A stretch of DNA of 63,844 nt, filler included, from Psammoneis japonica (taxonomy: Eukaryota): assembly GCA_008632985.1 (NCBI GenBank). It is 5 parts of 5 records of this genome, joined end to end, with 100 filler letters (N's around TTAATTAATTAA, not from the genome) between each part and the next. Parts side by side here need not be neighbours in the genome. Positions count along the whole stretch, not along the records: positions 1 to 13,983 come from QPGO01000547.1; 4 more parts are not named here. One strand, given 5' to 3'. The notes beneath the pieces were generated by a model, which did not search any database, was not told where the DNA came from, and saw only the letters and a list, made by a program, of their open reading frames with translations. Shown one piece after another: positions 1 through 38,689 of this stretch. How positions within the stretch are numbered: position 1 is the stretch's first letter; every line of letters begins with the position of its first letter. The translations under genes and the position numbers were made by a program.

Positions 1-614
1 TGAAACTGTCACACTTGCATCTGAGATTCTTCATCCTCACACACCCTCAAAACCGAGCACATGACGATTCTCTTGTCGGCGGCGAAATCTGATGTTGTCG
101 CGCGACCCAAAAGCGCAGTCCATGACGACTCAAAGTGCGGGCGACACATCACAAGAATCACAGCAACGTGTCACAGAAACACTCTTCGTTGTCAGCATCC
201 GGTGTCAAGTGGATGGAGCAGCGCGTTGATGAGAGCCCCACTTCGCAAGCTGAGGAAGAGAGAAAGAGGCATCAAAAACATCATGAGTCAAAAGGCTGCC
301 CACAAGGCACAACAAAAAACAAAGATCAAATTTTCAACCACGCCGTCGCGTTGGGCGTTGTCTCATTGACCTGTCTCGGCATTCTTGCCTTCTCAGCCAC
401 AACACCCGAATGGACGAGTTCATGGTGACGGCATGGCGCCATTTTCGGTTTGCGCGAATTGTGGTTTGTGGTTCGAGACATGGAAAAATGTGTTTTCGCT
501 GTCATGGAGCTCGCTTTTTGCTGAGGTTTTTGGTGCCAAATGCACGTCTCATGTAGAAACACGCAGAAAACCTCGTGATGTGTCCAAAAGTTTCTCACCT
601 GGGATGAAAACACA
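1..614 (+). repeat. Dispersed direct repeat, copy A (may extend left of the window)
   Basis: Collinear with 8618-9241 (starts TGAAACTGTCACACTTGCATCTGAGATTCT); differences are mostly transitions. Confidence 0.92.
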
Positions 615-674
615 CCGCAAAACCAAGAATTGCGCAACATGGCTGAGGGCACAAAATCTCAAAGGTGCCCCCAG

Positions 675-997
675 CGAAAATGCGAAAATGCGAAAATGCG
701 AAAATGCGAAAATGNNNNNNNNNNNNNNNNNNNNNNNNNNNNNNNNNNNNNNNNNNNNNNNNNNNNNNNNNNNNNNNNNNNNNNNNNNNNNNNNNNNNNN
801 NNNNNNNNNNNNNNNNNNNNNNNNNNNNNNNNNNNNNNNNNNNNNNNNNNNNNNNNNNNNNNNNNNNNNNNNNNNNNNNNNNNNNNNNNNNNNNNNNNNN
901 NNNNNNNNNNNNNNNNNNNNNNNNNNNNNNNNNNNNNNNNNNNNNNNNNNNNGAAAATGCGAAAATGCGAAAATGCGAAAATGCGAAAATGCGAAAA
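675..997 (+). repeat. 8-bp satellite (GAAAATGC)n interrupted by an assembly gap
   Basis: Perfect GAAAATGC units on both sides of the N run. Confidence 0.95.
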
Positions 998-2357
998 TCG
1001 CACAAGATGATGTGACGCACCAAATTCCGTTGAGAGAATCCAGGCTCCAACCTCAGAGATGATCGCATTTTTCAGCTTGGCGAAACGCCATTGTCCGTGT
1101 CATTTTGCGCGCCACTTTGAGCCGCGAGCCAGAAAACACCCCCAAAAACTGTTCTGCAGGGCGGGGTGCGCTGAGCCTGCATGGATTTGGGTTGTTCCAG
1201 GCTGCGCAGAAAGCAGACAGGCCAAAAACTCCGGCGCACCCACTCAAACACATTCGACAGCTGGCTGACAACAGATCGGTTGACTGGCTTCCCAAAACGC
1301 CGCTTGTGTCGCGCCCTTCTCCAGCTGCTCTCCGGCTGGCGCCATGGAGCGCAGCCGCTCAATTTAGATTGTGTCTGCAACGTCATTTGCAACAAACGTG
1401 ACTGCCNNNNNNNNNNNNNNNNNNNNNNNNNNNNNNNNNNNNNNNNNNNNNNNNNNNNNNNNNNNNNNNNNNNNNNNNNNNNNNNNNNNNNNNNNNNCCC
1501 CCCCCCCCCCCCCCCCCACTTTCCTGCCACGCTCTGCCACAGTCTTCCTGCAAAAATCCTCTGGCAGCTGAGGGCACAAATTGGCCAAGGACAGTGCAAA
1601 AGTCACAAAGGCACAAAGGGCACAAAGTGGCCAACGGCAAAAAACCAGGAAGGGCAAAAAAGGCGGCCATTGGCACAAAATCAAAAAGGGCTCAAAGTGG
1701 TTGAGGGCACAAAATCATGAATGGAAAAATGGCGGTGGCAGCGGCAGCAGTTGTGTCACCCTTGTGGCTCAAGTTGTTGTCACAGTTGCCCTCACGTTGT
1801 CGTTGTTGCATTTTGCAAAAAAGCCAAGATGCGGCGCACGAGGGGACAAATCGGTGAAGTCCGTCTCTGCGCCATGGGGAAGCCCATTTGTCCCCCATGA
1901 TGCGCTCATCCTCGGCTCTGCACGTTGGGGGTCACAGCATGTTGGGTGAGCATGTCAACCTCTCTCCCCCAACACACCATTCCCGCGCCATGCACGCTTT
2001 TGTTGACACGCCACAGAAGCCATTTTGCTTGACCTGGTTTCATCACAAGTGTTCTTCAATCCACAGCTGCAGGTGATGTCTCTTTTGTTGCTGATGTGTC
2101 CGCTCCACGTCAGCTCCATTTTTGTGGGCGCATGCCTCCTCGTCTCCTTCCCTTGTGTTGCCGTCCACACCGCCGGCGCTGCACTCCATTCTGCCCAAAC
2201 ACACGTGTTGTTTGAAGCAACAAACCCTGCTCTGCTTTCCCAAGGCATTTGCGGCAGTTGCCCCATTGGCTTTGCTCCAGCGCCCCTGCCCCAAACACTT
2301 GCACCACAAATCTTGTTTGATCAGCGCCCTTGCCAGTGGGCTGTGTCCCTTCAGTGC

Positions 2358-2962
2358 ACGGAAATGCGCAAACGCACAAAAGCGCAAATGCACAAATGCG
2401 CAAACGCGTGAATGCAGAAGTGCGAAAGTGCAAAAGTGCGGAAACGCGGAAACGCGAAAATGCGGAAATGTGGAAATGCAAAAATGCGGAAACGCGGAAA
2501 TGCGAAAATGCGGAAGTGCGGAAATGCAAAAATGCGGAAGTGCGGAAATGCGAAAATGCGCGAATGCGTGAGTGCAGAAGTGCGAAAATGCGGAAATGCG
2601 AAAATGCGAAAATGCAAAAATGCAAAAATGCGAAAATGCGGAAATGCGGAAATGCGGAAATGCAAAAATGCAAAAACGCGGAAATGCGAAAATGCGAAAA
2701 TGTGAAAATGCAGAAATGTGGAAATGCGAAAATGCGGAAATGCGGAAATGCGGAAGTGCGGAAAAGCGGAAGTGCGGAGGTGCGGAAATGCGGAAATGTG
2801 GAAATGCAAAAATGCCCAAACGCGGAAATGCGGAAATGCGAAAATGCAGAAATGTGGAAATGTGGAAATGCGGAAATGCAAAAATGCAAAAATGCAAAAT
2901 GCAGAAATGCGGGAATGCAGAAAAACACGAAAACACGGAAATGCGGAAATGCAAAAATGCAA
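2358..2962 (+). repeat. Degenerate 8-bp satellite of the same family
   Basis: ~600 bp of GAAAATGC/GGAAATGC/GAAACGCG/CAAAAATG variants; gives spurious (K/R)CGNAEM ORFs. Confidence 0.93.
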
Positions 2963-3189
2963 AAAGGGTCAGGCTTGGGTTTGGGGTTGGGGTTTGTTTC
3001 TGAATCTTTGGCACATGACATCTTGTCTGTCACACGACAATGTTTTTTGTGCGCTGGTTTCACAAAATGCAAAAAGGGTCAGGCTTGGGTTTGGGGTTGG
3101 GGTTTGTTTCTGAATCTTTGGCACATGACATCTTGTCTGTCAACATGACAATGTTTTTTGTGCGCTGGTTTCACGACAAGGTGTTGTGT

Positions 3190-3680
3190 TCAGCAAATGT
3201 CCATCAAAGTGCTGTGGCGGTGTTTCAAGCTCAAGACAAAATTGGTTGGAGACAGATTTTCAACGGGCGCTTCTCATCTTTGTGGAACAAAGCTCAGCCA
3301 TCATGCTCGCTGTCAACTGGATTGTGCCACTCCTTGTTGAACATGGAAAAGCACTCAGATTGGGCCGCTGCGATTGGCAGTTTTGTGTGGCCCCAATGGC
3401 GGGAACACTCCATGATGACACCGCACATGGGCACAATTTGGGCACAAGAAAGTCCTCACAGCACTGTGATGCCAAGGCAGGAGCATGAGCCATCCACTCC
3501 AAGGCAGACAATTGCTCAGCTTGCAGTTGATCCGAGTTGCTCAGTTCAGCGGAGGAGCACCTCACTTGTTCGACCCACAGACTGTGCAGCTGGTTGGCCA
3601 TGGCTCAACCAATGTTCAAGCCAAGCATTCGTGAAGCCTGGCGTCTGGCAGTGAGGGGCACTGGCACCATTGCAATGAGC
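3190..3680 (+). mobile_element. 3' fragment of a non-LTR (LINE-like) retrotransposon ORF, decayed
   Basis: QDKIGWRQIFNGRFSSLW...DWAAAIGSFVWPQW...EEHLTCSTHRLCSWLAMAQPMFKPSIREA aligns by eye to the C-terminus of the element at 54.6-55.1 kb. Confidence 0.75.
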
Positions 3681-4213
3681 AATTCACGCCGCAGTCTCTG
3701 GGAATTTGACAAGATGCGACAGAAAATGTTGGCGCGGCAATCAACAGGTTCCAGAAAATTGCAAGGTTGGTCTTCGCCAAATGCCACATTCAGCGACAGT
3801 GTGGCTGCATTCACTCAGTCCCCTCGAATGGACGCCAGCTTCGGCAGCATCAACTCGACCCTGTGCATCCGTGTTGCCGGCCCTTTCCAGGCCAGCTGAA
3901 AAAAACCATGTCTCGGGGTGGGCAAAACCATCTCCATTTTGGAAACGGAAAATCCCGGTTCGTCTGCAAGACGAAGCAATCAGCGGCGCCACAACTGCAC
4001 TGGGCTCGGGTGTTTTGCCCACCACTGGAATCACGCTCCTCACAAAATGTGACAAATTGACTCCCGGAGCCTCGGTCCGGGCATCAACTTGGCAAGAACG
4101 TCAGCGAGATTCATCTCGCCATCCTCCCAAGCAATGCGCACAATGCCAGCAGCCTGCACCTCACGCACCCGGTGACAAGCAATGGCGCTGTGCTTCTTTT
4201 TGAGTGTCGACTC

Positions 4214-4352
4214 GGGCTGGGGTTGGGGCTGGGGTTGGGGCTGGGGCTGGGTTGGGGTTTGGGGTTGGGGTCAGGGTTGGGGCTGGGGTTGGGGTCAGGG
4301 CTGGGGTTGGGGTTGGCGCTGGGGTTGGGATCAGGGTTGGGATTGGGGTCAG
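4214..4352 (+). repeat. Interstitial telomere-like array derived from (TTAGGG)n, every unit lacking TA
   Basis: 6-bp periodic array of TTGGGG, TCAGGG and CTGGGG units with no TTAGGG left. Short relatives lie near 2965, 3075, 11293 and 13960. Confidence 0.8.
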
Positions 4353-4696
4353 CACACACGTCTTTTTGGCTCGGTTTTGGGTCAGGGCAAGAGTCTGTGC
4401 ATCGTCCGTCAATGTTTTTGACCACAAAATGGCGACGTGCGATGCACAGACTGCCCGTTTGGGACCTTTGCTGGACCCATTTCGGTTGACGGGTGATGGA
4501 CAGACTGTGCCATTTTGGGACCAACGCTGGACCCATTTCGACCTGCAACTGGAGCTGCCAATGATTTTTGGGATTGGGTGCCAGTTTGCTGTCCACAACT
4601 GCAGTGTCATTTTGGCAAGTCAGCTGAAACACTGGGTGCACAAACACAGACGAATTTCAACATGAGCGGCGATTGTGGTTTCACACAATTGATGTT

Positions 4697-7600
4697 TCAG
4701 CCCGTCTTTCTCTTGCTCTGATTTCTCGCAGAGGAACGGGGCGTGTTCGCAACGACCCTCCTCGTTTTTTTTGACTTTGGTGGAGCAGCAAGGCCCTCTG
4801 TCTTTCTTTTCTTTCCGGAATCTGCTTTTTTCTTCTTGGCTTTGGCTTCCTGTCTCATCTTTTCCAAAAACAGATGACCCTCTGCCCGCTCTTGTGCTGT
4901 GGCAAATGTTTTGATGGTTGTCATTGCTGGGTCCCTTTCCTCCAAGGCAGCGACAGCTGCCTTTTGATTGCTGACGACAGGGAGTTCTGGTGCATCAGAT
5001 CCGTCGCTGACAACGCTCGCTGTTTCAGACTCTTGGTCCTGTTCGATTGCCTTTGGAAATCCTTTTGTGTCTCCATCATTGTTGTGCTCTTTGTTCTGGG
5101 ACAATTCTTTCCACACCTTTCCGCTCTGCTTTGCTTGTTGGCTTTGTCATCACGACCGTTCTTGTGAGAATTTTTTTCTGACGATCTCCCTCCCGTTTTT
5201 GCCTGCTTGCTCTCTTGTTGCCATCACCACGTTTCCCATCATCGTTGTTGCCTGACGACTCTGCATCCTCCTGCTCAACTTCCTCCTGGCTTTTCTCTTC
5301 ATCTTTGCTTCCCTCTTCTGCCTGGCTTTCCTCTCCAGCTTCAGACTGATCACCCTCTGAGGATTCGTGTGAATTCAGAGATGCAACGGGATCCTCAGTG
5401 CTGTCTTGTGATCCCTGCATCTCACCGTCGTCGTCTTGGACTGGAAAGGAGTCATGGTCTTGCACATTTCCAGAAATGTCCTGCCCAGCACAGGGTGAGC
5501 CATTTGGGTCCAGTGCTGGGTCCACATTGTCCAAGTCTTGTTTGTCTGCACAGCGTTTGAAAGGTTTGACGTGAGAAACGAAGACAGTGCCATTTGGGAC
5601 CATGGCTGGCTCCATTTCGCCTTTGCTCACCTGATTGAAATGCTTCGCATGACAATGTCTTCTGTCCCTCTTCAGACTTGCCTTCTTCTGCCTTCTGGCC
5701 ATCACCATGGCCCTTGTTGCACAGATGCAAGGTTGTCTTTTTCCGGCTTGTCGCTGGCTGCATCTTGTGCTGCATCACCATTCGTCGCATCTTCCTGAAT
5801 CTTGGTTCCTTCTGGGACTTTGCATTCATTGTCTTGAAAACTTTCAGAAATGATGCCTTGCTCATGTTCAACCGACTCGGCATTTTCTGCATCATGTTCA
5901 GAATCAACGTGTGAGGTGCAGACTGTGTCATTTTGGGACCATCGCTGGCTCCATTTCGCCCCACTTGCCTGACCGACCAGAAGCTCCTGTCGTTTCATTC
6001 GTCTTGACACTGTCAACTCAGGATTTTCCTGCTGCCTCGCAGCTGATGGCTGAGATTTGGCAGTCTGCTTGGAATCTCCAGTTTTTTGAGAATGATCGAT
6101 GTCCTGGCCTCTGTTGAACCCACCTTTGTTGAGCTCCAAGTGTTCACATCGGGAGGTGTTGAAATGACTCTGGTGGATGAGTGTTGCCTCGATCATTGCA
6201 CACTCTTCCGCTGATTTTGGGTCTTTGTGGGACTCATCAAAGTTGTTGCAGTCGCTGCAACTTTGATCCTCGTCAAACACAAATTTCCCTGCAACCTTGC
6301 CCCACAGTTTCTCTTTTTCTAATTGGGCGACAGTTCGAAACTTGATTTTGGAAGGGTCGGCATCTGAGCAATCAAACTCGTCATCGGTGTTGTGTCCCCT
6401 GTGGTGGATTTCATCCTTCAGCCGCTTTGGAGTCACATTTTTGTTCAGCTGCATGTGAGCAATGGCACAAGCAACAGCGCCACACTGTTTGTTCAACCCA
6501 GTGAATTCTGCCTTCAACTTGTGCGTCGCCTCTTCATTGACATCCGTTGCATCGATGGTCTTTGACAGGCACCTGCCAACCAACTGGCACATGCTCGAAT
6601 TCTTGTTCCACTTGCCAATTGATCATCCGCCAAAAAGGGGTTCGTGTGCCGGCATCGCTTTGGCTGCAGATCTCATGCCTTTTCGTAAATGCTGTTTTCA
6701 ACAAGAACGATGTCCAGCACCAACTCAGACAGGCTGCCACAAACGCTCCTTCCAACCTTGTGCTTTGTGCAAAAGGTGTTTGAATGTAAGGTCTTGATTG
6801 TTTCCTCTGCCACAAGGTTCCCTTTGTTGTCCACAAATTTAGCTTGCCCCTCCTCCTTGTCCATCACGGCGAATCTTCTGACAGAAACACTCAAGCTCTT
6901 TTCCTTGCTCAACCACTCACAGACAAATGCCGCCATTGTGGGAATGTTTGCCATGATGTCTGGGTCAGCCTTGCTTTTTCTCACCAACTCTCTGCATGAC
7001 TTCAAAGTGTCCTTGTCAAACATTGCTGCTTGTGCATCAGCGTCTTCTTGAGGTGGGTTCCCATGGTGAAAAATTGCACACTGTGACATGTGACAAAAAG
7101 TCACGGTCCACACAACTGTCAAGGATTGAAGCCTTGACATTTGTGCCTGTGATGGCAGCAAAAATTGCCTGTGAGAAGGGTGGTCAGGATCGCTGCAATT
7201 TGCGCTCTGACGTTGTTGCACTGGCTGACAAACAGCGCAAATGAGTCACATGTTTCTGGGTCACATGCTGCCTTGCAGCCAAAAGAAGCAATCTTTGCCT
7301 TTAGAGCCACCATGATGCACTGGTCTGCCAAATCAAACTCCGCATCACCATGGACAGTCGGGTCAGGGAGAAATGTTGTCAAAACTGCGCGATGATGTGT
7401 TTGAGCTCTTGAGAGCTCACCCAGCTTGAGACATCATGGCTCCAAGTCACCATGTTTGTCGCGAACTCTTCCTGATGCTGTGTCTGTGACTTGGCTTCGT
7501 CGTTGAATTGCCGTGGCCATCGTGCTTCAGAGGCAACATTCTTGACAAGAAAAAGTGTCTCTGGGACACTGACAGGATTTGATCAAGATTGACCAACTCG

Positions 7601-8197
7601 ACCAAATCCGACCCAACGACTTGAAAAATGCGACACCCAGAATTCGAGCCCAGGTCATCAAGTGACCGGTTGCCAACCAAACCATTCACCGCACAGTTCA
7701 AGTCGAGAGGCTTTTTGAACAAATGCTGCCATGACAGCTGAGAATTGGGTGTGAGACAAGACAGAGTGTTGAACAGCATCAACAGGTTCTAGAACTGTGA
7801 GATGTTGCGCCACTGGGGCCATCAAACAAGCAACAGTGGACCAATCGCCAACAGCAAATGAACTGCCCATGTCCGTGACAGCATGTCAGCATTCATTCAA
7901 CTCAGTCCATTCGACTTGCACGTCCCAGCCTTTGGTTGATGTGTTTTCATCCCAGGTGAGAAACGCGCACACGGAGGTGAGACGTTTCGTCTGTCCCTTT
8001 TCCGTCGCCGTGCTTTTTGTGCGAGCAAATCTGACTGGACTTTCCCCTGATTTTTCGTTTCTTCTTTCCACAGACATGTTTATTTTGAAAAGCCAGCCAT
8101 TGTTCTCATTGGTTGAAGGGTGCGTGCAAGAAAAGCGCTGTCTCAAAAGCGGCATTTTTTGGAGTGAAGCTGACAGCCATCTGCTCGTTGTTGTCAT
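4697..8197 (-). pseudogene. Decayed large ORF of unknown (probably TE) origin
   Basis: Chain of overlapping minus-strand ORFs (7886-8197, 6673-7221, 5702-6592, 5076-5708, 4697-5116) ending in an acidic then basic tail; no family motif recognised. Confidence 0.4.
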
Positions 8198-8617
8198 TTG
8201 AGAGACTGTCCCACTGTTTCTTTCACCGAATCTGACTGCTTTGAAAGAATGTGTGCATCATTCATTGTGTAAAGAGCTCATGCCAAAAAAGAACGGCGTT
8301 CTAACTCTGTTGTTTGCATGAGAAAAATCGGGGGAACTGACTTCGCACGTGATTTTTTGCGCGATCGGCCATTTCAAAGATCGACTGATTTGTCGACCTG
8401 TGTGGGACACTTGAGTGAACAAAACAACAGGATTGAAACAGTGGCATCAAAGTTCAATGTGTGTCCAGTTGTCATGTGATTTGACATGCCTGGGCAGAGT
8501 TGAAGATGAAATGTTGACAAAATTTCACCACTCAAAATGACTGGTTCTATCTTAGAATAAAACAAAATGGCTGCAACACTGGGACATCGCTGATGGCATT
8601 GTTCTGCTTTACAATGA

Positions 8618-9241
8618 TGAAACTGTCACACTTGCATCTGAGATTCTTTGTCCTCACACACCCTCAAAACCGAACACATGACGATTCTCTTGTCGGTGGC
8701 GAAATCTGATGTTGTCGCGCAACCCAAAAGCGTCGTCCATGACGACTCAAAGTGCGGACGATGCATTGTGAGAATCACAGCAACGTGTCATAGAAACACT
8801 CTTCATTGTCAGCATCTGGTGTCAAGCAGATGGAGCAGCACGTTGATGAGAATCCCACTTCGCAAGCTGAGGAAGAGAGAAAGAGGCATCAAAAATGTCA
8901 TGAGCAAAAAGGCTGTCCACAAGGCACAACAAAAAACAAAGATCAAATTTTCAACCACATCATCGCATTGAGCGTTGTCTTGTTGACCTGTCTCGGCATT
9001 CTTGCCTTCTCAGTCACAACATCCGTTGGTGCAAGAATGGACGAGTTCATGGTGACGGCATGGTGCCATTTTCGGTTTGTGCAAATTGTGGTTTGTGGTT
9101 CGAGACATGGAAAAACATGTTTTTGCTGTCATGGAGCTCGTTTTTTACTAAGATTTTTGGCACCAAATGTGCGCATCATGTAGAAACATGTAGAAAACCT
9201 CGTGATGTGTCCAAAAGTTTCTCACCCAGGATGAAAACACA
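8618..9241 (+). repeat. Dispersed direct repeat, copy B (less mutated)
   Basis: Matches 1-614 and keeps TA at 8791, 9146, 9149 and 9191 where copy A has CA/TG. Confidence 0.92.
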
Positions 9242-9319
9242 TCGGTCGTCCTCCCAGGAGCACGCCTGCCAGTCTCAGTCGTCATGTGCCCGTCATCGGC
9301 CGTTGCGGCATGGGCATCA

Positions 9320-11260
9320 CATCGGTGATTGACTGTTTGGTCAGGGAATTCCACGTCGTGTGTCCTCAAGTCTAGGACAGGGTCGTTGTTCCCAGTGCCA
9401 ACAGGAACCCCGTCACCATCTCGCTTGCGTGCAATGACCCTAGCATGAGTCAGCTTGCCTCCTCGTGGTGACATGACTTGAGCTGTGAGACATTCATCTG
9501 GCCCTTCCGGGGCACACTCATCAGCTTCCAGTTTGGAAGCGTTGGGTTCCGCGGGTTCAACAGCATTGTCCCATTCGTCCATGAAGTCGTCAGGGAGTTC
9601 AGGGAAGTCAGCACTGGCACCCTTTTCTGGAATGCTGAGCCGTTCGATCAAAGCTTGATTGACCGATGCAAGATCCATCTGGATCGCCGGAGTTTTAAGG
9701 TCATCCTCCGGCACTGCCCATGCATCCTTCCAAATGATGGGTTTGCCTGATTCTGGCAAAACAATGAGTGCCACATTGTCAGCGCAGTTGTCAGCTGCTC
9801 CAAGCCAACGGCCGGTGCACTTCTTTTCGTGTGGGAGCTCCGCCACAGGCACGCAGCGACAAACAGGTTGACACCAATCAAAGAGAGAGAGGGAAGAGAT
9901 GTCGGGTGTCGAACCTGTCACCTCCTCTTCTGGGACTTGTCCTCCCATGTCCAATGTGCTGGCCACAATCATGCGTCGGACATCACACATCCATTTGGCG
10001 CCACAGGACCAAAGTCGCCTGTGAGCGCCAGCCCGGCATAGAGTCACACGGACTCTTTTCTTCAACTCACGAATGGATGCCTCGGCTGGGTTCTGCCAGG
10101 GGCTGCAAGGGGTGGACACCTCCTGGTGTGTCCTGCATTCCTTGCAGATCTCTTTGGTCTGGCCTTCCGCCATTTCCGGCGTGCCATCCGACACAAGGAC
10201 CTGTGGTGCACCAACGTCATGCACAAATGACGTGACAGCATCCGGGTGGTCCTGTTTCCTCTTCCAAGGATGGAACCCATCACACCCTCTTCCGTTGGCA
10301 AATGCGCTTCCTCCTGTCTCACCATGTGTCGATTTGACCTTCAAAAACATCTGGCTGGAGCAGAGTCATCCCTTGATCGCAGGGAACTTGAGCCAAGGGG
10401 CTTTCTTCCGGACTTTCCGTTCGGATGGTGTGCAGAAATTGCGGACCCCTGCCTGGTTCGTCACCCCAAGGGTGTTCTCAGCGGCCGCAAGGCCAGTGTT
10501 CCACCTTTTAGAGAGCATCTCCGGCATGACAGTCGACGCACGACTCAAGGTCGACAGTGCATGCACCCGTCTCCGCTCGGCACAATCCGGGTGGACATCC
10601 AGGTCACGTCAGTCATGTGGCCCGTCTCCCTCAGTGTCGCTGTGGGAGACATTCACCTGAGCAACCAGGCGGCGACACAGTGGGTCGTCATCATCAGCAT
10701 CCACAATGACGCTCTCGTTGTGACAGGCCGTTGTGTGTGAATGAATGGAAGCGACACACCTGGTCGCACTCGTCATCGTCGACCATCCATCCGACTTTGC
10801 TGATCCTTGGCGCACACTGGCGCACACACGCGCTTCCTCCTTTTGCGCCATGGCATCAGCAGAAGGCTCCCATCTCAGGGGCGATGCAAGTTCCAGCCGG
10901 GGGAGGTTCTCCAGATCCTCCTTTGTTGGCTTGTGTGAATCAAAGACTGAAGCAACACCTCTCATTCGCAGCGGCACCCTGATCTTCGAGTCAGGAAAAG
11001 AGACAGAGTGCGCGCCAGTCGGGTCAAACTGGCGAGGGGCATCGTGGACAATCAGCCCAATTTTCTCACAGTTGGTTGGGGCACAGGAGGGTGTTGGTCA
11101 CCTTGTCCCCGAGAAACACAGCCTCGTGGACTGGCAGCAGGCACGGTTGTCCATCAGTTGGATCAGCCCACACGGCAGCAGCCACGCAAACAGGAACATT
11201 TTCCATTGGTGCGTGCTCTTCGGAGCAGGGGTGAACCATGACAGTTCTGTCAACGTCAGA
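9320..11260 (-). mobile_element. Ty1/Copia LTR retrotransposon pol fragment (diatom CoDi-like), including integrase; hypermutated
   Basis: Integrase core DVGAPQVLVSDG...STPCSPWQNPAEASIRELKKR; downstream ARVIARKRDGDGVPVGTGNNDPVLDLRTHDVEFPD; upstream HPCSEEHAPMENVPV...LLCPNQL and PLRMRGVASVFDSHKPT, resembling CoDi pol motifs as I recall them. Confidence 0.85.
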
Positions 11261-13309
11261 GTGCATCACAAAATTGGACCCAACAGCACGGTTTGGGTCA
11301 GGGTTTGGGCAATGGGCAGTGGGCAAAGGCCAAAAAGAAAGGCCAAAGGGAAAGCGAAGCCAAGAAGGGAAAAGGAAACGGAAAAGGGGACAAGGAAGTG
11401 GGAAAGAGGACCACAAATGACATCAAATGCAAATTAATTTAGCTGGTTTTGCAGAAGAAAACACAGATGAATGAACTGCAGAAAAGAGGTGCAATGTGAA
11501 AGATTCAAATGGAGGTTGGAGAGAGCAAGGAAGGAGCTGAAAAAGGAGCTGACAATTCTGAAACAACTGAAGTGTCATCGTTGGTTCCAAGGGCATTGTT
11601 TGCAAGCTGGAGCTGGTCGGTGTTTCCAAACATTTGCGTGGCTAGATGGGAAAGAACCAGACCTTCATGGCGCTCTTGATTGAGTGTCTGAACTGTTGCA
11701 TCATCTGGGCAAATGAAAAGTCTGAAGTGATGGAAGTGATTGAGGAATGTTTGTCCAAGCTCAGCTGTGGGAATGGAGGCAGCTTCTTCTGGAGAAAGCC
11801 CAATCTTGAGGCCAGTGTGGAAGAGATCTTCAAGGCAGGCTGAATCTTCAGATCCAATGGAGAAGCTGTCCAGAGCATCTAACCCACTGATGTTGCCACA
11901 AAGCTGACCAGAGACAAAGTTGTGCAAAGATGAGGCAGGGAAGAAGTGCCTTGCTGGTCCATGCAGACAGTTTGTTTCAGTGTTTCCAACGAGGGAAAAC
12001 CTGATGACAGAGCAGGGAATGGAGTCAACCACTCCTTGTTTGCAGGCTTCAAGGCAGAGCTTGAAAGGAAAGTCATGTTTCAAAGGGCACTTGGACTCCG
12101 ACTGCCAAAATGGGTGGAGAAAAGTGAAGAGCTTGGCTTGAGAAGGAGAGTCTGGACAAAGCTTCTTCTGCTTCTTCCAGAGCTTGCTGAAGCAAGAGGA
12201 GCAATTTTTTCTCATCCTCTTGTCCCATCCAGTGGCATGAACACAATCCATCCATGACATGGAAGACAAGGCCTTGTTGCAGCAGGCAGCGTGCATGTTT
12301 GCTGATGCTGTTTTTTTTTTTGTGTCAAGCGGTGTGATGTTTTGTGAAGTCGAGCATTTTGGAAGTCGTGGGACAGCTCGCACGGTCCACAAGGCATGAG
12401 ATGTGCCAGCAGAAATGCACAGGAAAGCGCGGCAGTTGCATCCGTTGAATGTGATGATGCGCCACGTCAGTGCTGTGTTGCCAAGCAATTGCCATGGGAA
12501 ACAGATGTTGTGCGAATGCAAGAATGTCCTCACATGAGTGCAACACAGTGACATGTTTTGCACACAAAAAACATGTGTGAAAAAACATGTGACGGTTGAA
12601 GGAACCGAACATGTGTTGTGCTCAATGATGTGCACAAAATGAGCGCAGTTTCAACCTTGGAATTGTCCGAATTGAGCTGGAAATTCAGCGGCAATTGAAA
12701 GGAAATTGAGTGCAAAATGATTGGCTCTGAGACAAAACAATGAGTGGCACTGAGATGAGCGCAACAGCACTGCTCTGTTGCAGCTCAAATGGAAGATGTT
12801 GCAGAAGATGGCAGCAGATGAGATTTGCTGCACGAAGCAGCAGCAACGGCGCTGCTGTCATGGCGGCAAAAGCTGTGTGTGGTGCGTGGCTGATGAGAGG
12901 AAAAAGATTCGACACACTGTCTGTTGAAGATGAAAAGAGGCGGCACAGGGACTCAGTTGAGGAGTTTGGAGGCTGAGTGGAGCAGGGGTGGGTGTTTGAC
13001 AAACGGGTTTTGGAAAACAGAGGACAGGCGTGGCTGTTGTTGTTTGTGCAGGGGGCAAGTCAAGAGACGTTCTTTCTGATGTTGGGAGCACCTTCTTTTT
13101 GGCGAAAAGAGCGGATCTTTGAGCTGCAATGTGCGGAGCACAGAAGGAAAGGGCGCGCACAAAGACAAGGCAAGAGCATCTTGCAAACTCGCTGCACGTG
13201 AAAGCACACAATTTGGTTTGCAAACTCATTGCAGAAATCTGCTTTTTGGACAAAACGGAATGTGCGCCGTCAGAGGTGCATGCAAATGCACTGCAGCCGG
13301 GAAACAAGA

Positions 13310-13815
13310 CATCCATGGACAAAAAAACATGGACAAAGTGACGCTTCCAGACAATTTTTGCATTGAGAATTTGCCAGGGAAATGACTCACCCACAGACAA
13401 AGCAACACAGACATTTTGACACTGCCAAACAACAATTTTGTGAGCAAATGGGGAGGGAAATGAAACACCCATGGACAAACTGACACAGACATTGTGACAC
13501 CGCCAAACAAAAATTTTGTGAGCAAATGGGGAGGGAAATGACACATCCATGGACAAAAAGACACAGACATTCAGACACCGCCAAACAAAAATTTTGTAAG
13601 CACATGGGAAGGTAAGTGACACACCCACGGACAAACTAACAAAGACAAACTGACACCGCCAAACAAAAATTTTGTGAGCATGTGAAGAGGGAAATGACAC
13701 ACCCACGGACAAACTAACAAAAACAAACTGACACCGCCAAACAAAAATTTTGTGAGCAAATGAGGAGGGAAATGACACACCCACGGACAAACTAACACAG
13801 ATAAACTGACACAGA
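13310..13815 (+). repeat. 78-bp minisatellite, about 6 units
   Basis: GACAC(C/T)GCCAAAC anchor at 13418, 13496, 13574, 13652 and 13730 (period 78). Confidence 0.9.
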
Positions 13816-13983
13816 TGCTGTAAAAGCTCATAACCTAATTGAACAAGCCGAGAACTTTTAGGTCCACAACCCATTTGATGCAAAAGCTCACAAACTGTTT
13901 GACATGTGTGCAACATGCACATGTGTGTGTGTGTCACATGTGGTGCATTTGGGATGGGAGGGTTTGGGCTTGGGTCATGAGTG

Positions 13984-14083
13984 NNNNNNNNNNNNNNNNN
14001 NNNNNNNNNNNNNNNNNNNNNNNNNNNTTAATTAATTAANNNNNNNNNNNNNNNNNNNNNNNNNNNNNNNNNNNNNNNNNNNN
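13984..14083. other. Artificial contig linker
   Basis: 44 N + TTAATTAATTAA (stops in all frames) + 44 N. Confidence 0.98.
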
Positions 14084-17000
14084 GTGATCATGACGACGAC
14101 GATGATGACGTTGATCACCTTTTGGACCCGAGGGCTGGACATGTTCTGGCTGGGTGTCAAGTGCACATGCCCGCGATTCAAAACTGGACCAGAGACCTGA
14201 ATCGCTCCAATTGGGCAGGGCATTGGGATCTCCCGGTGCTCGTAGAGTCCCTTTTGTTGGGGTGATTCGGCACAGGTGCAGTCAAATCGCAACAGCATCA
14301 GTTTGTCTAAATTGATCAATGAAATGGAGGACATCATGACCCACGCCCTCGACCAGATGGTGACTTTCGACGAGAGGGGTGTTCGTTTTGAAGGTCACTG
14401 CACCATTGCGGGAAACACATTGGACTGCCTTCTCCAACAATCAGAGTGTCACAATGACAGCAATTCCATCGCTGCCACGGCACCAGACTGGCCATCTCTG
14501 TTCAATCCCATGGGGGCAATCCGAGTGGCCCAGGAAAGCCAAGTCAGGAACTGCTGTGAATCACTCCGCGAACGATGTTTCCCTTGTCTTTGAAAGCTTG
14601 CTTCATGTGATCTCGGTTCGACCGACGACACCATCGAACAAGTGGATGTTCATTCTTCAGCGCTGAAGCCAGGACTGCCATTTGTTCCAAAGCTGAGCTT
14701 GCAGTCCTGCTCTGCTGGCTGGGTTTCTCACCCCAAAAATCCTCGAGAATGCACTGAAGGACGTGATGAGTGGACCGTGCGACGTTCCCGTGCATTGCCA
14801 AACAGAACTTTCACAAGAGGAAAAGCTTTGGACCTGTTGTGGATGTGGGGTTGACCCAAAATTGTTGCCTCTGAAAGCTGCCAACACAATCCGACTCAAT
14901 GAATGGTCCAACATTGCCATCAAAACACAGTCGCACTCAAGAATCAAGGCGGTGCTTCTGTCCACTGCCATGACATGTCCGCTTCAGCATGTGGAGCACA
15001 GCGGCAGGATCAAACACCTTCTCATCCACAGCAGCAACTCCGACAACACCGACCTGGCAGAAAACGTCAATCTTGCAGTCCGACCCGATTGTGGTTTGTT
15101 CAAAGAACCCAATCTTGATGTTCTCATGACCCGGTCTTCCGAGTCAATCCAATGTCTTGTTTCACAACTGCGCACGGTTGTTGCCCACATGTGTGACAAG
15201 GAATGGCATTGCAAGCTTGTTGCTTCGAAATCTTCCGCCGGCAGTGGTGCACCCCGGGAATGGCCAAACGTGTTGACAGATTATTTGCAGTTTCCAACGA
15301 CTCTTTCCGACGCCCTCGAGTTCATGTCCCGGAACCAACAGTCCACTTGTTTCAAGCACTGCTCCCATGCTGTTGTGAGAGAATGTGAGTTTTTTGTCAT
15401 TCCCTGTCCTCCACCAAATCGATGCACCACTGTCTCAATTCCGCAACCGTGGTCGCACCATGGACAGATGACCGCCGGATCGACACCACACCACACCGAT
15501 CCGCCATTTGTTGACAGACAGACTGCTCCATCATCGATGCCCTGTGTGTCACACTGACCACTGCCAAATCGAAACTTCGCTGTCTCGATGGGGCAACCGT
15601 GGCTGCACCATGGACAGACGACCGCCAGATCGATGCCACACTGCACCGATCCGGCATTTGTCGACGGACAGACTGCTGCATCATCGATGCGCTGTGCATG
15701 TCGCACCGATTTGTTGGCTGGCACTCATCATTTCCAATAATTTCTTTCGCTGACACCCCTGTTGTTCCTTTCATTTTCATCAATTGATTCACTGTTGTGA
15801 TGTTTTTGGCGTGGTCAACAGCCCAGTTGGTTGAGCTGTGCTTTGGTCCTTGAGATGCCAGTGACAGAGGGTGGAAAAAAAGTCCAAGCACAAACCCATG
15901 TTGGTTTGTGGAGGGTTTTCTCAACCAACTGAGGAAAAAGATTGTGGGTGGTGGTTCAAATGTGGATTTCCATCATCCATTGTCTGACTGCATGCGTCGA
16001 AAGATTTTCTCTGATGTGTTTGTCAGTCGCTGTCCTGTTGTTGCTGAAGGTGCAGACCGCTCCCCTCCCGCTGTTTGGAACACCCAAGGTTCCAGGATGA
16101 TGCGTCACTCGGGAGAGTTTAAATCCATGCACATTCCTCCAGGCGGGACTCCGCCTGCTCTCGCCCCAGATTCCTTGGTGGGTCCCCTCAGCAGCGACCG
16201 TGATTTGCTGAATTTGAGACAATTTGTCAACCGCGACATGCTCTGGGCTTGTCTTGTGGACAAAGCTCACTGTGATTTTCCCAAGCAGATCAACGTCAGT
16301 CAAATCATCGGTCGCACGGTATGTGTCGCATGTTCTCTTGTGGAAATGAGGAGGAGAAGGGCAGGGGAAAATTGGTCATGGGCCAAGCAATGAAAAGAGC
16401 ATGTGACATGAGCTTGTCTCCAGGAATTGAGCTGCTCCATTTTTTCGACTCAAAAGCAAAATGCTTGGCGTTTGTGAAGAACACCATTGGCACTCTCTGC
16501 GCAAAGAAGATTCAGGATGAAACACAACCTGAAATTGTGTTGCATCCACTTGGCATGGACAACAGCCTCCTGGCCACCTGGAGGTGCATTCTCCGCAACA
16601 GTGGAGAACCCAATGACATGTTTGGGTTTGTTCGAACTGGTCGAGACAACTCCGGCGCAGCAGTCTCTGGACCTGATGTTTTGGTCAAGGGCGGCAATTC
16701 CGACGATGAAACAAGGTTGATGGAGGAGCACATTCAAGGAGGTGACAATGTGTCCATGCTGAAGTTGGCCGCAAAGGGTGTTCTCACGGATGCAGTTTTG
16801 GAAAAACTGAGTGTGATCCGAACCTCTTGGACAAACAACCACATTGATGTTGCCCGTGCCCTCAAGCAAAGGGAGTCGGACAGTTCTTGCCCTTCCCCCG
16901 CACGCAATGCCAACCAGGTTTTGCTCCGCAATCTTTGGGGCAAGCAAAGCAACGAGACTCAGTTGAAGAATGCCCAGATCTAGTTGGCGTGTGGCAGCGC

Positions 17001-20000
17001 GCCCTTTTTGTGTTTGTGTTGAAGCTGCCAGCCACCGAATCCATTCCCGAAATCATTTTTGTGCTCATGACCCACTCGACATGCCACACCAACCAACTGA
17101 TTTTCACGCAATGTCAATCTGGTTGCATGTTGAAGCAGCATGATTTTGGATTTTCATGGCAAGCCCCTCTTCCCCCACATTTTGTGAATTTTGTCACAGC
17201 CTCACAAATTTTCCATTTTGGCTTTTGTCAAACGATGCTGCAGCAGCTGGAGCAATTGACTTTTGCTTTTTTGAAAGCACGTTGATCACAAGGGAATTGT
17301 CAGATTCGACGCCGCGACCAACGACCATGATGACTGATGACACGACCCCCACATGGCTTTGTGACAAGACCTCGGTGGCCGCAAGCTCATTTGGTGAAAA
17401 CAAGCACAACCCAACAGGAACACCTAAACAGTCGTGCACAAAATCAGCTTTCCCCCAGCTTCCGATGCCTGACAACATTTCCACAGGGCACATTTTGCTT
17501 GCAACGAGCCGCTCCTGCGATGACAAAATTGTTTCTGTCGGCCAACAGATGCACGACAAGACAGGAGACTCGTTGTCCGGTTTTCAACTGCCTGGCAACA
17601 TTTCCACAGGGCACATTTTGCTTGCAACGAGCCGCTCCTGCGATGACAAAATTGTTTCTGTTGGCCAACAGATGCACAACAAGACAGGAGACTCGTTGTC
17701 CGGTTTTCAACTTTGTGTGCCCGCGGTTCGAAACCAAGCCAATGATGTCACCCAGACGCAGATGGCGTGGTCTCGGCAAGCGCTTTGGGGTCTCGTCGAT
17801 TGCATTGAAAGATCATCAATGTCCAGCTTGGCATTTTACCGCCCAGCTCTCATTTTGTCCCTGGTTGCTGACAACGGAAATCCTCATTGTTTTTTTTTTT
17901 CCGTCACCCCAGATTGACATGGAAGCCTGTCAATTCCTTGTTTTTTGTTCACTCGACAGTTCTGCGACTTTGTGCAATGCTCCAAGCTAAATTGGTGTGG
18001 GACCGCACCGATTTCTCCATGGAGTGGAAATGATGCCATCCATGTCCCCTTGGTTTTTTCCAAATTGGCTGCCCCGCTTTCTTCTCCAGCTCCAACCCCG
18101 CTTTCTTCTCCGGCTCCAAGCAATGACGGTGCTCTGCAGCACCGATTTTGCTTTTGTCAAACCAACGTGTCACACGTCTCCTCGATCCCACTTTTTGCGA
18201 TTGATTTGCTGCGTCACTGTTTTTTTCACTTGAAGTCATGAGATGCCACTTGTCTTGTTGAAGCAGGAAGATGTCGGATTTTTGAGGGAACCTGTTTGCC
18301 ACTTGTCCACCATCATGTCACACTTCTCACAATTTCCAACATTTGGCTTTTCACAACACGAACGGATTTGCCGCATGTCTTGTCTCACGGACACTGACCC
18401 CTCTTGGAAAAGGGAACTCAGTGAAGTTTCTGAGTTGGTTCATGAGTTGACAGCAAATCGAACAACCATGAGGCCCGGCTTCATGAAAACCGCACTTCTT
18501 GGAAGCAATGAGGTTGTTGAGGAAGGCAAGATTTGTGAAATGATGAAAGACCTCATGGGTCTTGGAACAAAGTCTTCATGGGGCCTGTGTGGAACACAAG
18601 TCCAAATGCTCTGACGACGAATGCAAAGCATGTCTCGCTCAGGTCTCCTTGTCAATTTGCATTGCGTGCCAACTGACCAAACATGCTTTGAACACAGGGG
18701 AGGTTCTGTTTGGTTCTTTGTTTGGACAGATTCACCCGCATCTTGTCAAATTTTTTTTCCCAGCGGTCCTTTTTTTGGGAAGGTGAGATTCTTTGTCATG
18801 CGCCACGTTTTCATTTCCTTGGAGGCAATCCTGACTTCTTTTTTGCACCCCCTCATTTAGACAGAAAATGTCTCTGAACAAAAGCAACATCTTTTTCTGC
18901 AACACCCAGCATGCTGAATCTCAAGATTCAGCCGAAGATTCATCCGGGGCCAATGTCTCCAAAAAAAGGAAAGCCGCCAGTGACGAGGTGGTGTCTGACT
19001 TGTTGTTTTGCAAAAAGGCCATGGTGGAGGAAACTTGCCAAGAGTGTGTCTCATTGGCGATGGAGTTTGATCTTTCCGACTGCAACATCCTCACAAGCCG
19101 CTCTTCCAACGAGAACGTCTGTCACTTCTTCCTCTTCAGCAACTCTGACTCTGACGATGACTCCGCCGTTGAAGACACGCGCTGCAGTGTGCAAATTGTT
19201 GCCTCTCTCGGGACGCCAACTCCTCACAGATCAAGTCGGTCCCACCACAGATCAAAAAAATTTTGGGAGCCCATTTTCCAGAATCTTTCTTCAACTGTGC
19301 TTCAATTTGCAAAAGGCCAGTCAAACTCCACTCCCCATCGATTTGGCCCTTGTTTTGCCCACCAATTTTCCGTTGCAAGCTGCAAGCTTCTTCGTGATGC
19401 TGTTGATGCCGGCAGCACCATGGAGCCGCCAGAAGCAACCAGCGGCACTGCGGTGCATGGGCTTCCCAGTCGCAGTGACTCAAAACGGCACCCGCTGCCT
19501 CTGCCAGCCGATGTTGATGAACCCAAGTGGGAGCCTGGGGGCATCCTCGTCACTCAAAAGGGTGCGGCTCTTGCCACCACAAATGCCTTGACCGGTGCAC
19601 GGGGGTCAGAAGTGGGTGGGATTGACGGAATTTGTTCATTCCATGCTTCCAGCTGGTGGTTCGACAACAACAAAAAGCACTTCAGGGATGCCAGCAGACA
19701 AAGGGATCTCCTGGTTGAATTCGAGTTGTTCGCCAAAGCTTGCCCCACCGTTTTGCCAGCACCGACCATGCAGAAAATGATGCTTGAATCATGGACAACC
19801 AAGCACAAGGAGCCCGTTGCAGCAGAAAAATTGTCCATTCTGCCCGCTCAGCCAAACGATGGCCAGATTGAGGACATGTTGGACCAGGATGTTGAAGCCA
19901 CTGGACACCCCGCCGATGGCAACGTTTCAGATGAGGATTGTGTTCCGGAAGCCGCTGATTCCCTGCACATCCTGGATGAATGGGAAGCCCTTGGGCGTGG

Positions 20001-25844: not shown

Positions 25845-26728
25845 GGGCAGAAAGCTGGGGAGACAAAACATTGACACGCGTCGAGATGAATGTTTTCAAC
25901 CCGCTCTTGGGAGGAATTCCGAGTGACAACAACGCAGTCGAAAGCGGCAACTGTCATGACAAGAATGCTTTGAATCGCCAAAAGCGAAGTGTCGCTCCGT
26001 TCATGCCAAAACTTTGCAAATTGCTGCCCGGCTGCAGCAAAGAGGACTTGCTGCACTGTGGGAGCATGAAGGCAGAGATCCACAACTGGGATTTTTGTGA
26101 ACGAGTGCACACGACTCTCACGAATCATGAAAACAACAGGGCTGCTTTTCTTTCTTTGCAGCAGCCGTTCCAAGATGTCCGTGGCCCTGTGGGTGCGCCG
26201 CGAGGGTCGCACACTCTTGGGGGGCAGCACTGCGTTGATGATCTCGTTGACCTTGGCGTTGACATGGATGACACCAATGCATGCAAAAAGTGTCTCACGA
26301 CAAATCGATGGATGCATCAGTGCAAGATGCCACTCCGGAACCCTGAAAAAGCCACTGCCAAGTTCAACGTGAGTTGTGAAACGGCTGTGGATTGGATCAA
26401 GACGTTCCACATCATGACGCCGATCCTTCCATCAGACGACATGACTTGAGCTGCAATGAAAGAGCTTCGCGCGATGCTCACACACAACGGGCTGCCAGCG
26501 ATGCTGATGGAAGAGCTGTTGGAACAAGGCATCGACACGGGTCTCATGTCTTGCACATGCCAGACGTGCCAGCATCGTGTGTGGTGCCACCATTCATGTG
26601 CCATGGCAAAGCACCGAGGAACAGTGTTGGGTTTTCCTCCCACTCTAAATGCAAAGGACTGTTCCAAGCGTCGGGCCGGTCGTCCCAAGGCTGCAAGGCG
26701 TGGAGGAGCCCTGACGGTCGACTCGTGA
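24880..26728 (+). mobile_element. Mutator/MULE-like transposase, C-terminal part with SWIM zinc finger; hypermutated pseudogene
   Basis: CSFH (CxxH), SDNNAVESGN (TNNxxESxN, catalytic Glu region), CTCQTCQHRVWCHH (SWIM), RRAGRPK tail; frameshift near 25182 and in-frame TGA at 26447. A truncated duplicate lies at 18868-19831. Confidence 0.78.
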
Positions 26729-27952: not shown

Positions 27953-28052
27953 NNNNNNNNNNNNNNNNNNNNNNNNNNNNNNNNNNNNNNNNNNNNTTAA
28001 TTAATTAANNNNNNNNNNNNNNNNNNNNNNNNNNNNNNNNNNNNNNNNNNNN
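27953..28052. other. Artificial contig linker
   Basis: 44 N + TTAATTAATTAA + 44 N. Confidence 0.98.
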
Positions 28053-30834: not shown

Positions 30835-31590
30835 CAAGGATTTGTGAAGTTTTTCAGGATGCACAAGCTCCAGCACAAATCCACGCGAGAGCCTGTTGCC
30901 ATGCGTGGTGCAAACACCATTGAACTTGTGCTGGAATTTGTGGAGGCCTGCATCGGGCTTCTGACTGGACAAACTTAACATCAAAAATTGTTGAAATGTC
31001 AATGACTTTCATTTCCAGAAATGTTCAAACGTTCTGGCAGAAGAATGACAGACACCATTTTTCCAGAATTTTTGCTTTTTGTGCATGTTTGAATGTCAAT
31101 GATTGAAAGCACACTTGCACACAATGACGTCAGAGTTCACACAGTCAAGATTGCTGCTTGAAGACTTGATGCCGAGCATGGCAACACATGCTCTGCTGCA
31201 CGCAGCTTGTGCATCCTGACAGACTTGCAAGTCCTTGCCTCTGCTGCCGCTCAAGCTGCACTTCTTTTAGCACAGCATCACATCCAAGGATTTACAAGTC
31301 CACCAGGATGCACAAGCTCTGGTGCAAATCTGTGCGCAAGCCTGTTGCCATGCATGGTGTGAACACCGTCAGAATTTGCACTGAGCCTTGCAGAGGTCTG
31401 CACAGGGGTCATGACTCAGAGAACCCAGCATTTGCAAATGTGTGTGTGTGGACATTGATGATTTCCAGAAATGTTCAAAAGTTCTGGTGGAAGAACAACA
31501 GATGCCATTCTTCCAGAACTTTTGCTTTTCGCACATGCCAACATTTGAAAACAGAGTTGTGTGCAATGACGTTGGAGTTCAGTGAGTCAA
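30835..31590 (+). repeat. Diverged direct duplication (~300-bp copies, ~450-bp offset)
   Basis: CAAGGATTT...CAGGATGCACAAGCTC...GCCTGTTGCCATGC at ~30835 and ~31285; ATTTCCAGAAATGTTCAAA in both copies. Confidence 0.8.
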
Positions 31591-32004
31591 GTTCAGTGTG
31601 ATGTGAGAAACAATGGCGTTGATGAGCTGAGACAAGTGGCAGATGCTGTGGCATGGACCACATGCCTTTCAAATTTCTTGGCTGCTCTCTGGGTTGCTTG
31701 TTGACACAGCATCGCAGCATCCTGCATGCATTGCGGTGTGCATGAAGTGCGGGTGGGTGCTGTTCTCCCTCCTTGTCCAATCTTCAACAAGATTCACTGC
31801 TGAACATCACAGCTGCACTTTTAGATTGCTCACAGTGTTGGTTTAGAAGGGCTTCACACCCTTGAACTTGTTGCATGTGCTCGCCACTGACTGGTGTGGT
31901 GAGCCAGCCACTTGCTTCTGTGTCAAATCTGCAGACAAGATTTCCCAAGATTGATGCCCAAACAAATCAAATTCAAAATGATGCTCCACAATTGTTGCAT
32001 GCAA

Positions 32005-38422: not shown

Positions 38423-38689
38423 GCGAAACTTGCATTTTCGACTCTGCGTTGCCTCTGTGTTGGTCTTCGTGATGTGGCAAAATAGTCGTACTCGTATTTG
38501 ATATGTTGGCGTTTGAGAGTATTACGTGATATTGAGAAATAGCAGCTAAAGTCAACATTCTGTATCTTTGAATTGAAAACGAAATGAGTCTTTTTGCTCA
38601 ACGCTGTCTACCAAGCCGCACACTATCAATAGCATGGATTTAACACCCCGAAAGGATAAACCAATCACAGAAACCGAGCTAGCATTATC

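Follow-up and report, generated by a model that had tools for sequence, protein, structure and literature searches.

Introduction

In repeat-induced point mutation (RIP), C is changed to T at CpA, which creates TpA and many stop codons and leaves the DNA AT-rich. Here we describe DNA of Psammoneis japonica (assembly GCA_008632985.1) in which the opposite has happened: about 45 kb are nearly emptied of the dinucleotide TpA (hereafter TA), with a matching excess of TG+CA, and they include the remnant of a Ty1/Copia-type retrotransposon whose integrase has lost its conserved tyrosines (Tyr). The window, by which we mean the whole stretch of DNA analysed, is 63,844 nucleotides long, filler included. 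We conclude that the case is a new, saturated example of TpA hypermutation, a process described very recently for foreign DNA in mutation-accumulation lines of Bigelowiella natans (Mettrop et al., 2026, bioRxiv 10.64898/2026.01.13.699255).

According to the main text of that preprint, 231 of the 302 de novo changes in the B. natans lines fell in two regions, one an integrated giant virus and the other a virophage, and 230 of these 231 were A>G or T>C, all of them on TpA, at a rate of about 6e-7 per site per generation (10.64898/2026.01.13.699255). The same text lists 324 low-TpA coding sequences, enriched for DDE endonuclease and reverse-transcriptase domains, as well as 124 TpA-poor, CpA+TpG-rich clusters, and it names an ADAT2-like candidate enzyme for which it reports no assay (10.64898/2026.01.13.699255). 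Our literature searches returned no account of TpA erasure besides this preprint, and a term search of its main text found none of the words “copia”, “retrotransposon”, “trinucleotide” and “context” (10.64898/2026.01.13.699255).

Results

Extent and borders of the TA-erased blocks

The window consists of five contigs (A to E, of 13983, 13869, 13773, 13220 and at least 8599 bases) placed in decreasing size. They are joined by spacers at 13984-14083, 27953-28052, 41826-41925 and 55146-55245, each made of N44-TTAATTAATTAA-N44, so that adjacency across a spacer has no genomic meaning. The ratio of observed to expected TA was 0.21 over the whole window and 0.07 over 9148-11422. Within 9320-11260, the region singled out by an earlier note on this DNA, the 1941 bases contain 5 TA, whereas base composition predicts 93. 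The effect described in that note was thus present where it had been seen, but its scope was drawn too locally, since the depletion extends over contigs A and B in full and over parts of C and D.

TA ranged from 0 to 11 per kb in 1-34000 and 44001-55000, where 45-78 were expected, and from 26 to 52 per kb elsewhere. When 1-kb windows were counted contig by contig, with Rho in its usual observed/expected form, Rho_TA was 0.00-0.17 in 45/45 windows of the four erased blocks and 0.45-0.85 in the 18 full windows of normal DNA. Contig A (1-13983) was erased end to end, with 39 TA left and Rho_TA of 0.00-0.15 in 14/14 windows, and contig B (14084-27952), which contains a 6.0-kb tandem duplication, was erased throughout. 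Contigs C (28053-41825) and D (41926-55145) were each part erased and part normal. The erased part of contig C spans 28053-33850; that of contig D spans 43670-55145, and there both TA and CpG were erased (Rho_TA 0.03-0.17, Rho_CA+TG 1.72-1.97). Between these two parts, normal-composition DNA with host genes occupies 34004-43666 (the remainder of contig C, the spacer after it and the beginning of contig D), with 26-48 TA per kb. Contig E (55246-63844), likewise of normal composition and with host genes, was used as control.

Both switches between erased and normal DNA lie inside contigs. In contig C the change occurs between the TA positions 33848 and 34004. In contig D it occurs after the TA at 43666, the next one being at 44182, and it lies about 340 bases past the end of a GST-like reading frame. 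This closeness of the borders to intact host genes argues for precise targeting. A cluster of short inverted copies, GTTTGAGACAA / TTGTCTCAAAC, is located at 43578-43710, exactly on the normal/TA-free border of contig D, and may represent the end of a transposon or act as a boundary element. At the other end of the window, TA thins out over 63300-63844 (Rho_TA 0.30 and Rho_CA+TG 1.46 in the last 599 bases), which could be the start of a further affected block past the window.

The sum of the four pyrimidine-purine steps (TA+CG+TG+CA) was about 240 per kb everywhere. TG+CA increased by about 55 per kb in contigs A and B and by about 90 per kb in contig D, which is as much as TA and CG together lost. 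TG and CA rose by nearly equal amounts per kb across the blocks, with no consistent strand bias of TG versus CA in the erased blocks; this symmetry indicates that both strands were hit. No repeats common to different erased blocks were found, in plain sequence or in purine/pyrimidine code.

Five of 10 open reading frames (ORFs) tested in the normal DNA scored above the Pfam cut-off (GST_C_2, Aminotran_1_2, RCC1, Gly_transf_sug and Rad60-SLD), and those within 34004-43666 were Rad60-SLD and GST_C_2. None of the 139 ORFs of at least 110 amino acids (aa) in the erased blocks reached this cut-off, and the Copia remnant was the only recognisable gene content of these blocks.

The Copia remnant

The remnant lies on the minus strand at 9238-11287 and comprises the N-terminal part, the protease region and the integrase of a Ty1/Copia-type polyprotein, corresponding to positions 19-701 of a 1334-position profile. 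The profile was built from 13 full-length homologs and used in hmmsearch, which returned the remnant in pieces at 11069-11287, 10672-11082, 10372-10584, 9334-10359 (the integrase, E 1.4e-77) and 9238-9336. A lone C-terminal end of a Copia polyprotein was recovered at 4046-4219, also on the minus strand (profile positions 1275-1332, E 5.3e-18), and the reverse-transcriptase (RT) part, profile positions 701-1275, had no match anywhere in the window. The reading frame is interrupted by an in-frame TGA at 10366-10368 (minus strand) in the integrase remnant, by another at 10609-10611 (minus strand) in the pol remnant, and by a frameshift near 11069-11097.

Searched alone against Pfam, the window ORF gave a weak match to rve (E 0.043) and no family above the cut-off. 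Among 40 aligned sequences (39 homologs and the window ORF), 10 matched rve (best E 6e-8) and 12 matched RVT_2, and the family profile matched foamy-virus, human T-lymphotropic virus (HTLV) and other integrase cores in the PDB at E 1e-4 to 9e-3; phmmer of homolog P0009 against the PDB gave no match. In the alignment D60 was invariant and E95 nearly so. The window copy has both, at the 35-residue spacing of the DD35E motif. In full-length homologs RVT_2 follows the integrase (in P0009, the integrase match covers 364-712 and RVT_2 covers 892-1087). The alignment and profile matches show that the element carries the integrase catalytic core (rve, DD35E) expected of a Ty1/Copia retrotransposon. 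It resembles Ty1/Copia elements in its integrase with D60 and E95, and differs from them by the missing RT, the stops, the frameshift and the lack of an identified pair of long terminal repeats (LTRs) of its own; no flanking repeat pair was found around 4046-11287.

Ten related Copia loci from metagenomes, found via a smaller homolog alignment, had observed/expected TA ratios of 0.46-0.81, so that the Copia family is not TA-poor by nature. The corresponding search with the window protein itself returned no relatives.

Loss of tyrosine and reversion test in the integrase

We aligned the 405-aa window ORF with the 80 best of 1725 homologs and kept the columns whose consensus reached at least 50%, 181 in all. 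Tyr was kept in none of the 9 Tyr columns, which now hold Cys (5), His (2), Leu (1) and Arg (1), whereas the consensus residue was retained in 111 of the 172 other conserved columns (Fisher p=1.4e-4). Not one Tyr occurs among the first 375 residues (3.7% in the homolog set), and Cys makes up 4.3% of them, compared with 1.5%. The earlier note had claimed a replacement of Tyr by Cys or His in the Copia integrase, and with 7 of the 9 Tyr columns changed to one of these two residues the alignment bears this out. The six peptide strings that it quoted are all present in minus-strand frames, PCSPWQN, FDWCQPVC, THDVEFPD and DECLTA in the ORF at 9148-10365, HPCSEEH and QPCLL in the ORF at 11066-11422. 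At the Cys column of HPCSEEH, P0009 has Tyr and both P0017 and P0031 have Phe; at that of QPCLL, Tyr occurs in P0009 and P0031 and Ile in P0017.

A reversion test was then applied to the 70 mismatched conserved columns, codon-straddling steps included. Setting the TG and CA of the window back to TA restored the consensus residue in 20 of them. The control reversions restored 1/70 (AG/CT), 0/70 (GG/CC) and 3/70 (CG), and reverting any G>A or C>T restored 25/70. Since 20 of these 25 mismatches explained by a transition lie at a former TA, the changes are concentrated on TA. The enrichment at TA-containing sites, which the earlier note had put forward as the test of its own claim, is therefore clear (20/70 restored versus 0-3 for the controls).

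Within codons, the changes were Y>C (5), Y>H (2), V(GTA)>A (2), I(ATA)>T (1) and L(TTA)>S (1), together with I>A. All of the classes predicted beforehand were recovered in this list except I>M and L>P, which were absent at conserved columns. Changes across codon boundaries, a class that the earlier note had not predicted, were also common, with A->G at codon position 1 after the T that ends the preceding codon: I>V four times (T/ATH>T/GTH, the slash marking the boundary), T>A twice (T/ACN>T/GCN) and M>V once (T/ATG>T/GTG). One further I>V arose by ATA->GTG.

Context of the surviving TA sites

We counted the 124 TAs that survive in the blocks, leaving out the second copy of the 6-kb duplicate and taking normal DNA as reference (R, purine; Y, pyrimidine). 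Survival was 0.002 for RTAY (1 TA left), 0.064 for RTAR and YTAY combined (50 left) and 0.30 for YTAR (73 left). The difference between context classes was strong (chi-square p=1e-28), and each of the four blocks (A to D) ranked them in the same order. TA being palindromic, a pyrimidine stands 3' to the A on both strands in RTAY, on one strand in the mixed classes and on neither in YTAR. Under a two-strand model, per-strand survival was 0.12 for an A followed by a pyrimidine and 0.55 for one followed by a purine, which puts the rate ratio at 3.6. The excess of products over normal DNA was likewise larger for YTGY+RCAR than for YCAY+RTGR in all three block sets. Of the conserved Tyr of the integrase, whose codons read T-A-Y on the sense strand, five turned into Cys and two into His. 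The surviving TAs thus reveal the target motif 5'-T-A-Y, that is, a preference for a 3' pyrimidine.

A repeat pair with CA/TG doublets

Contig A contains two copies of a repeat on the plus strand. Copy 1 (1-617) is truncated at its left by the contig start, and copy 2 (8618-9244) adjoins the end of the Copia homology (9238-9244). The repeat is possibly an LTR. The pair is positioned as if it belonged to another, nested element, and because the contig start truncates the left ends, it may represent either the LTRs of one element or two separate insertions.

The two copies were 89.3% identical in plain sequence and 97.9% identical in purine/pyrimidine code, 54 of their 57 substitutions being transitions. 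In 11 doublets one copy has CA where the other has TG, as would be left by an ancestral TA resolved separately in each; the doublets thus indicate that each repeat copy was hit separately. At four sites copy 2 still has the TA that copy 1 has lost to TG or CA. Where CG in one copy faces TG or CA in the other, copy 1 holds the CG in 13/13 cases, and 24 CpGs are common to both copies, so that copy 1 lost 0/37 of the CpGs that copy 2 could report. A double CpG loss therefore cannot explain the doublets, although a CpG ancestor would in principle leave such a pattern.

CpG decay and the tandem duplication

The observed/expected ratio of CpG was lowest in block D and at 30-34 kb (about 0.08-0.2), intermediate in contigs A and B (0.5-0.85) and highest in normal DNA (about 1). 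CpG is almost gone at 43900-55145 and 30000-34000, yet it is kept in the equally TA-free contigs A and B. We conclude that a second and uneven decay process, probably linked to methylation, acted on the same blocks.

The two units of the 6.0-kb tandem duplication (14084-19831 and 20093-25844) are 99.0% identical. Out of their 40 substitutions, 28 involve CpG and 2 involve TA, which indicates that the duplication is younger than the loss of TA and that CpG decay went on afterwards. TA loss and CpG decay are separable processes.

Stop codons and spurious reading frames

Among the 2266 stop triplets of the blocks (both strands), 2056 were TGA. TAA and TAG together dropped from 16.4 per 1000 triplet positions in normal DNA to 2.4 in the blocks, and the mean stop-to-stop distance rose from 26.8 to 37.6 codons. 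The loss of TAA and TAG thus produced many overlapping long ORFs in all six frames. That stop codons had been removed, as proposed earlier, holds for TAA and TAG; TGA persists, twice in frame in the remnant itself. The accompanying contrast with RIP was right, because TA is destroyed here and not made.

Long ORFs of contig B include those at 24890-26446 (plus strand, 519 aa) and 18835-20601 (plus strand, 589 aa). For the former, a language-model atlas gave a MULE/SWIM transposase lead with a best score of 0.89, under the 0.9 line; the lead had no Pfam support at E<=10, the only hit being a weak zinc knuckle (E 2.9e-4). Sequence homologs were found for neither ORF, the 589-aa one having been searched at E<=1e-3.

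Read depth around the border of contig C

Contigs of run X1 matched both 29436-33687 (erased, depth about 33) and 34022-34580 (normal, depth about 30) with 0 differences. This equal depth indicates that the erased segment 29436-33687 is single copy, level with its gene-bearing flank. The summed X1 depth reached about 4000-13800 at 33573-34032 and 28053-29432, against about 33 for the flanks, and thus reveals a high-copy repeat on the border of contig C and another at the start of this contig.

Other repeats of the window

Arrays of 8-bp satellites, whose commonest units are CGGAAATG, CGAAAATG and CAAAAATG, occupy 2287-2965 and the surroundings of an N run at 715-952 in contig A. The same contig has a 78-bp tandem repeat at 13298-13890, whose units vary between CA, TG, CG and TA at the same column and which carries TA at the same unit position at 13637, 13715 and 13793. 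The ancestral states of this array being ambiguous, we set it aside as evidence for TA loss. In normal DNA, a 432-bp tandem repeat with units up to 98-99% identical lies at 36713-38181, downstream of the Rad60-SLD (SUMO-like) frame.

Discussion

Locus-targeted TpA hypermutation as the favoured explanation

The best explanation of these data, to which we give a probability of about 85%, is a locus-targeted TpA>TpG/CpA hypermutation of silenced mobile or foreign DNA, acting on the DNA itself with a preference for T-A-Y and carried to saturation. It draws on the direction of the changes, their dinucleotide specificity, their 3' context, their saturation, the sharp borders of the blocks and the separate hits in the two repeat copies, all of which can be read directly in the window.

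In such a process, TpA would be turned into TpG or CpA, i.e., A into G on either strand, until hardly any target is left. Every Tyr codon would be removed, TAY becoming TGY (Cys) or CAY (His), and the codons ATA, TTA, CTA and GTA would be altered together with A-initial codons that follow a T. TAA and TAG would vanish while TGA would persist. The edited A would be hit about 3.6 times more readily before a pyrimidine, and both strands would be hit about equally. The process would halt within about 30-150 bases of neighbouring host genes, and it would be separate from the CpG decay of the same blocks and faster than it. As for the chemistry, we suggest an adenine deamination by a TadA/ADAT-like enzyme, which might be guided by chromatin or small RNA; its role may be genome defence. 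The motif T-A-Y resembles the U-A-C of the natural TadA substrate, a resemblance that we take as a lead only.

Several observations weigh against this explanation or limit what can be drawn from it. No mutation was seen directly, and the ancestral states are presumed ones: homologs and one repeat pair served to deduce them, with the normal blocks taking the ancestor's place. RTAY is emptier than the two-strand model predicts (1 observed, 6.8 predicted), which may mean that the preference is stronger than modelled or that the blocks differ in age. If the two repeat copies were two separate insertions, their doublets could predate integration. At the border of contig C, the segment 33687-34022, within the high-copy repeat, is bridged by none of the listed X1 contigs. 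Run X1 may moreover be the assembly's own sample, in which case its match has no value as independent proof. Finally, deamination of A on one strand and a T-to-C route on the other give the same sequence.

A still broader proposal would make TpA erasure a general, saturating defence against transposons, in which T-A-Y points to a TadA-like deaminase, borders of chromatin type are sharp to tens of bases, and the process is independent of the decay of methylated CpG. We regard this generalisation as tentative and rather doubtful at present. If it were true, a RIP-like defence with the opposite chemistry would exist, possibly widespread among protists.

Alternative explanations

The alternative that survives best, although we consider it improbable, is a lesion of thymine, in which the T of RpTpA would be oxidised enzymatically or otherwise modified and then read or repaired as C. 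Because TA is its own reverse complement, T>C at R-T-A and A>G at T-A-Y describe one event on paper, and the sequence alone cannot separate the two routes. We saw no data that support the thymine route, and the authors of the B. natans preprint favour adenine deamination, with an ADAT2-like candidate and no assay in the main text (10.64898/2026.01.13.699255).

Somewhat less probable again is RNA editing, i.e., an ADAR- or ADAT-like conversion of A to I on double-stranded retrotransposon transcripts that would be fixed by reverse transcription before each integration. The affected element is indeed a retrotransposon, and the repeat copies, if they were separate insertions, could have been edited separately beforehand. 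The depletion, however, spans whole blocks of 6-14 kb, including the 8-bp and 78-bp satellites and a 6-kb tandem unit without retroelement signature, and it ends at sharp borders beside host genes. TG and CA also increased almost equally on both strands, in place of the A>G on one strand that editing of transcripts would leave. The preferred 3' neighbour is a pyrimidine, whereas ADAR prefers a 3' G. This signature is also known to appear de novo in B. natans, in DNA-virus sequence integrated in the genome of asexual lines, and ADAR is described in the preprint as favouring a 5' U (10.64898/2026.01.13.699255).

Least probable of all is the absence of any targeted process, the blocks being contaminant or horizontally acquired DNA of TA-free composition or an assembly artefact: the window is indeed a concatenation of separate small contigs and the border of contig C falls in a high-copy repeat unbridged among the listed X1 contigs, but the switches lie inside contigs C and D, the depth is about 33 and 30 on the two sides of the contig C border, the repeat pair changed after its duplication and so does not reflect a static composition, the homologs indicate that Tyr was formerly present, and relatives of the element have a normal TA content. 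Taken together, the three alternatives account for a small share of the probability.

Implications

Only recently has a eukaryote been reported to disarm invading DNA by targeted A:T>G:C hypermutation, whose chemistry runs opposite to that of RIP and of APOBEC editing. Within the window the order of events can be read as well, TpA loss coming first and CpG decay continuing after it. The loss of TAA and TAG creates spurious long ORFs in six frames, which gene callers should expect in such blocks. The 3'-pyrimidine preference narrows the search for the enzyme, and a natural enzyme that deaminates adenine in DNA at a defined motif would be of interest for base editing.

Comparison with known systems

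The process resembles RIP of ascomycete fungi in being dinucleotide-specific and limited to transitions, in degrading mobile DNA within sharply bounded domains and in leaving a strong dinucleotide signature. It is unlike RIP in its products, since TpA is destroyed, TAA and TAG are lost, GC goes up and ORFs become longer. RIP depends on duplication and on a sexual phase; block C is single copy at the k-mer level. We rejected fungal RIP as an explanation, its direction being opposite to an observed/expected TA of 0.00-0.17 with CA/TG excess. APOBEC (C>U on cDNA) and ADAR (A>I on double-stranded RNA) share with the present case a deaminase-type hypermutation of mobile elements that is fixed in the genome. 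The changes observed here are not G>A or C>T, so that the process is not APOBEC-like, and they differ from the work of both enzymes in affecting both strands, in extending beyond retroelements, in being saturating and in occurring before a pyrimidine, in contrast to the 3' G of ADAR.

The closest system is that of B. natans, as described in the main sections of the preprint. In both cases only TpA is hit and becomes TpG or CpA depending on the strand; in our data this is visible in the 20 of 25 transition-explained mismatches that lie at a former TA, in the 11 doublets and in the gain of TG+CA that balances the loss of TA plus CG. Foreign or mobile DNA is targeted in discrete domains in B. natans, where host genes keep a normal composition, and domains of transposable-element type are among its targets. 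The same probably holds here: the Copia remnant is such a target and the host genes in normal DNA were spared, the rest of the blocks being without recognisable genes. Finally, the B. natans genome has TpA-poor, CpA+TpG-rich clusters of at least three 1-kb windows. With Rho in its usual observed/expected form, the two thresholds given in the preprint for such clusters were passed by 33 of our 64 windows, and such windows form runs of 5 to 11 in contigs A, C and D. Another 12 windows passed the TA threshold with Rho_CA+TG of 1.41-1.51, and Rho_TA was <=0.17 in 45 of the 64.

The 3'-pyrimidine preference, the CA/TG doublets, the sharpness of the borders and the overlay of CpG decay are features of the P. 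japonica blocks that do not appear in the main sections of the preprint. The target demonstrated here, a Ty1/Copia remnant, also differs from those of its main text. Above all, the two cases differ in degree: Rho_TA is 0.45 in the active nucleocytoplasmic large DNA virus region of B. natans and 0.00-0.17 in the saturated blocks described here, which put on view the end state of TpA hypermutation, kilobase blocks with essentially no TpA and proteins without tyrosine.

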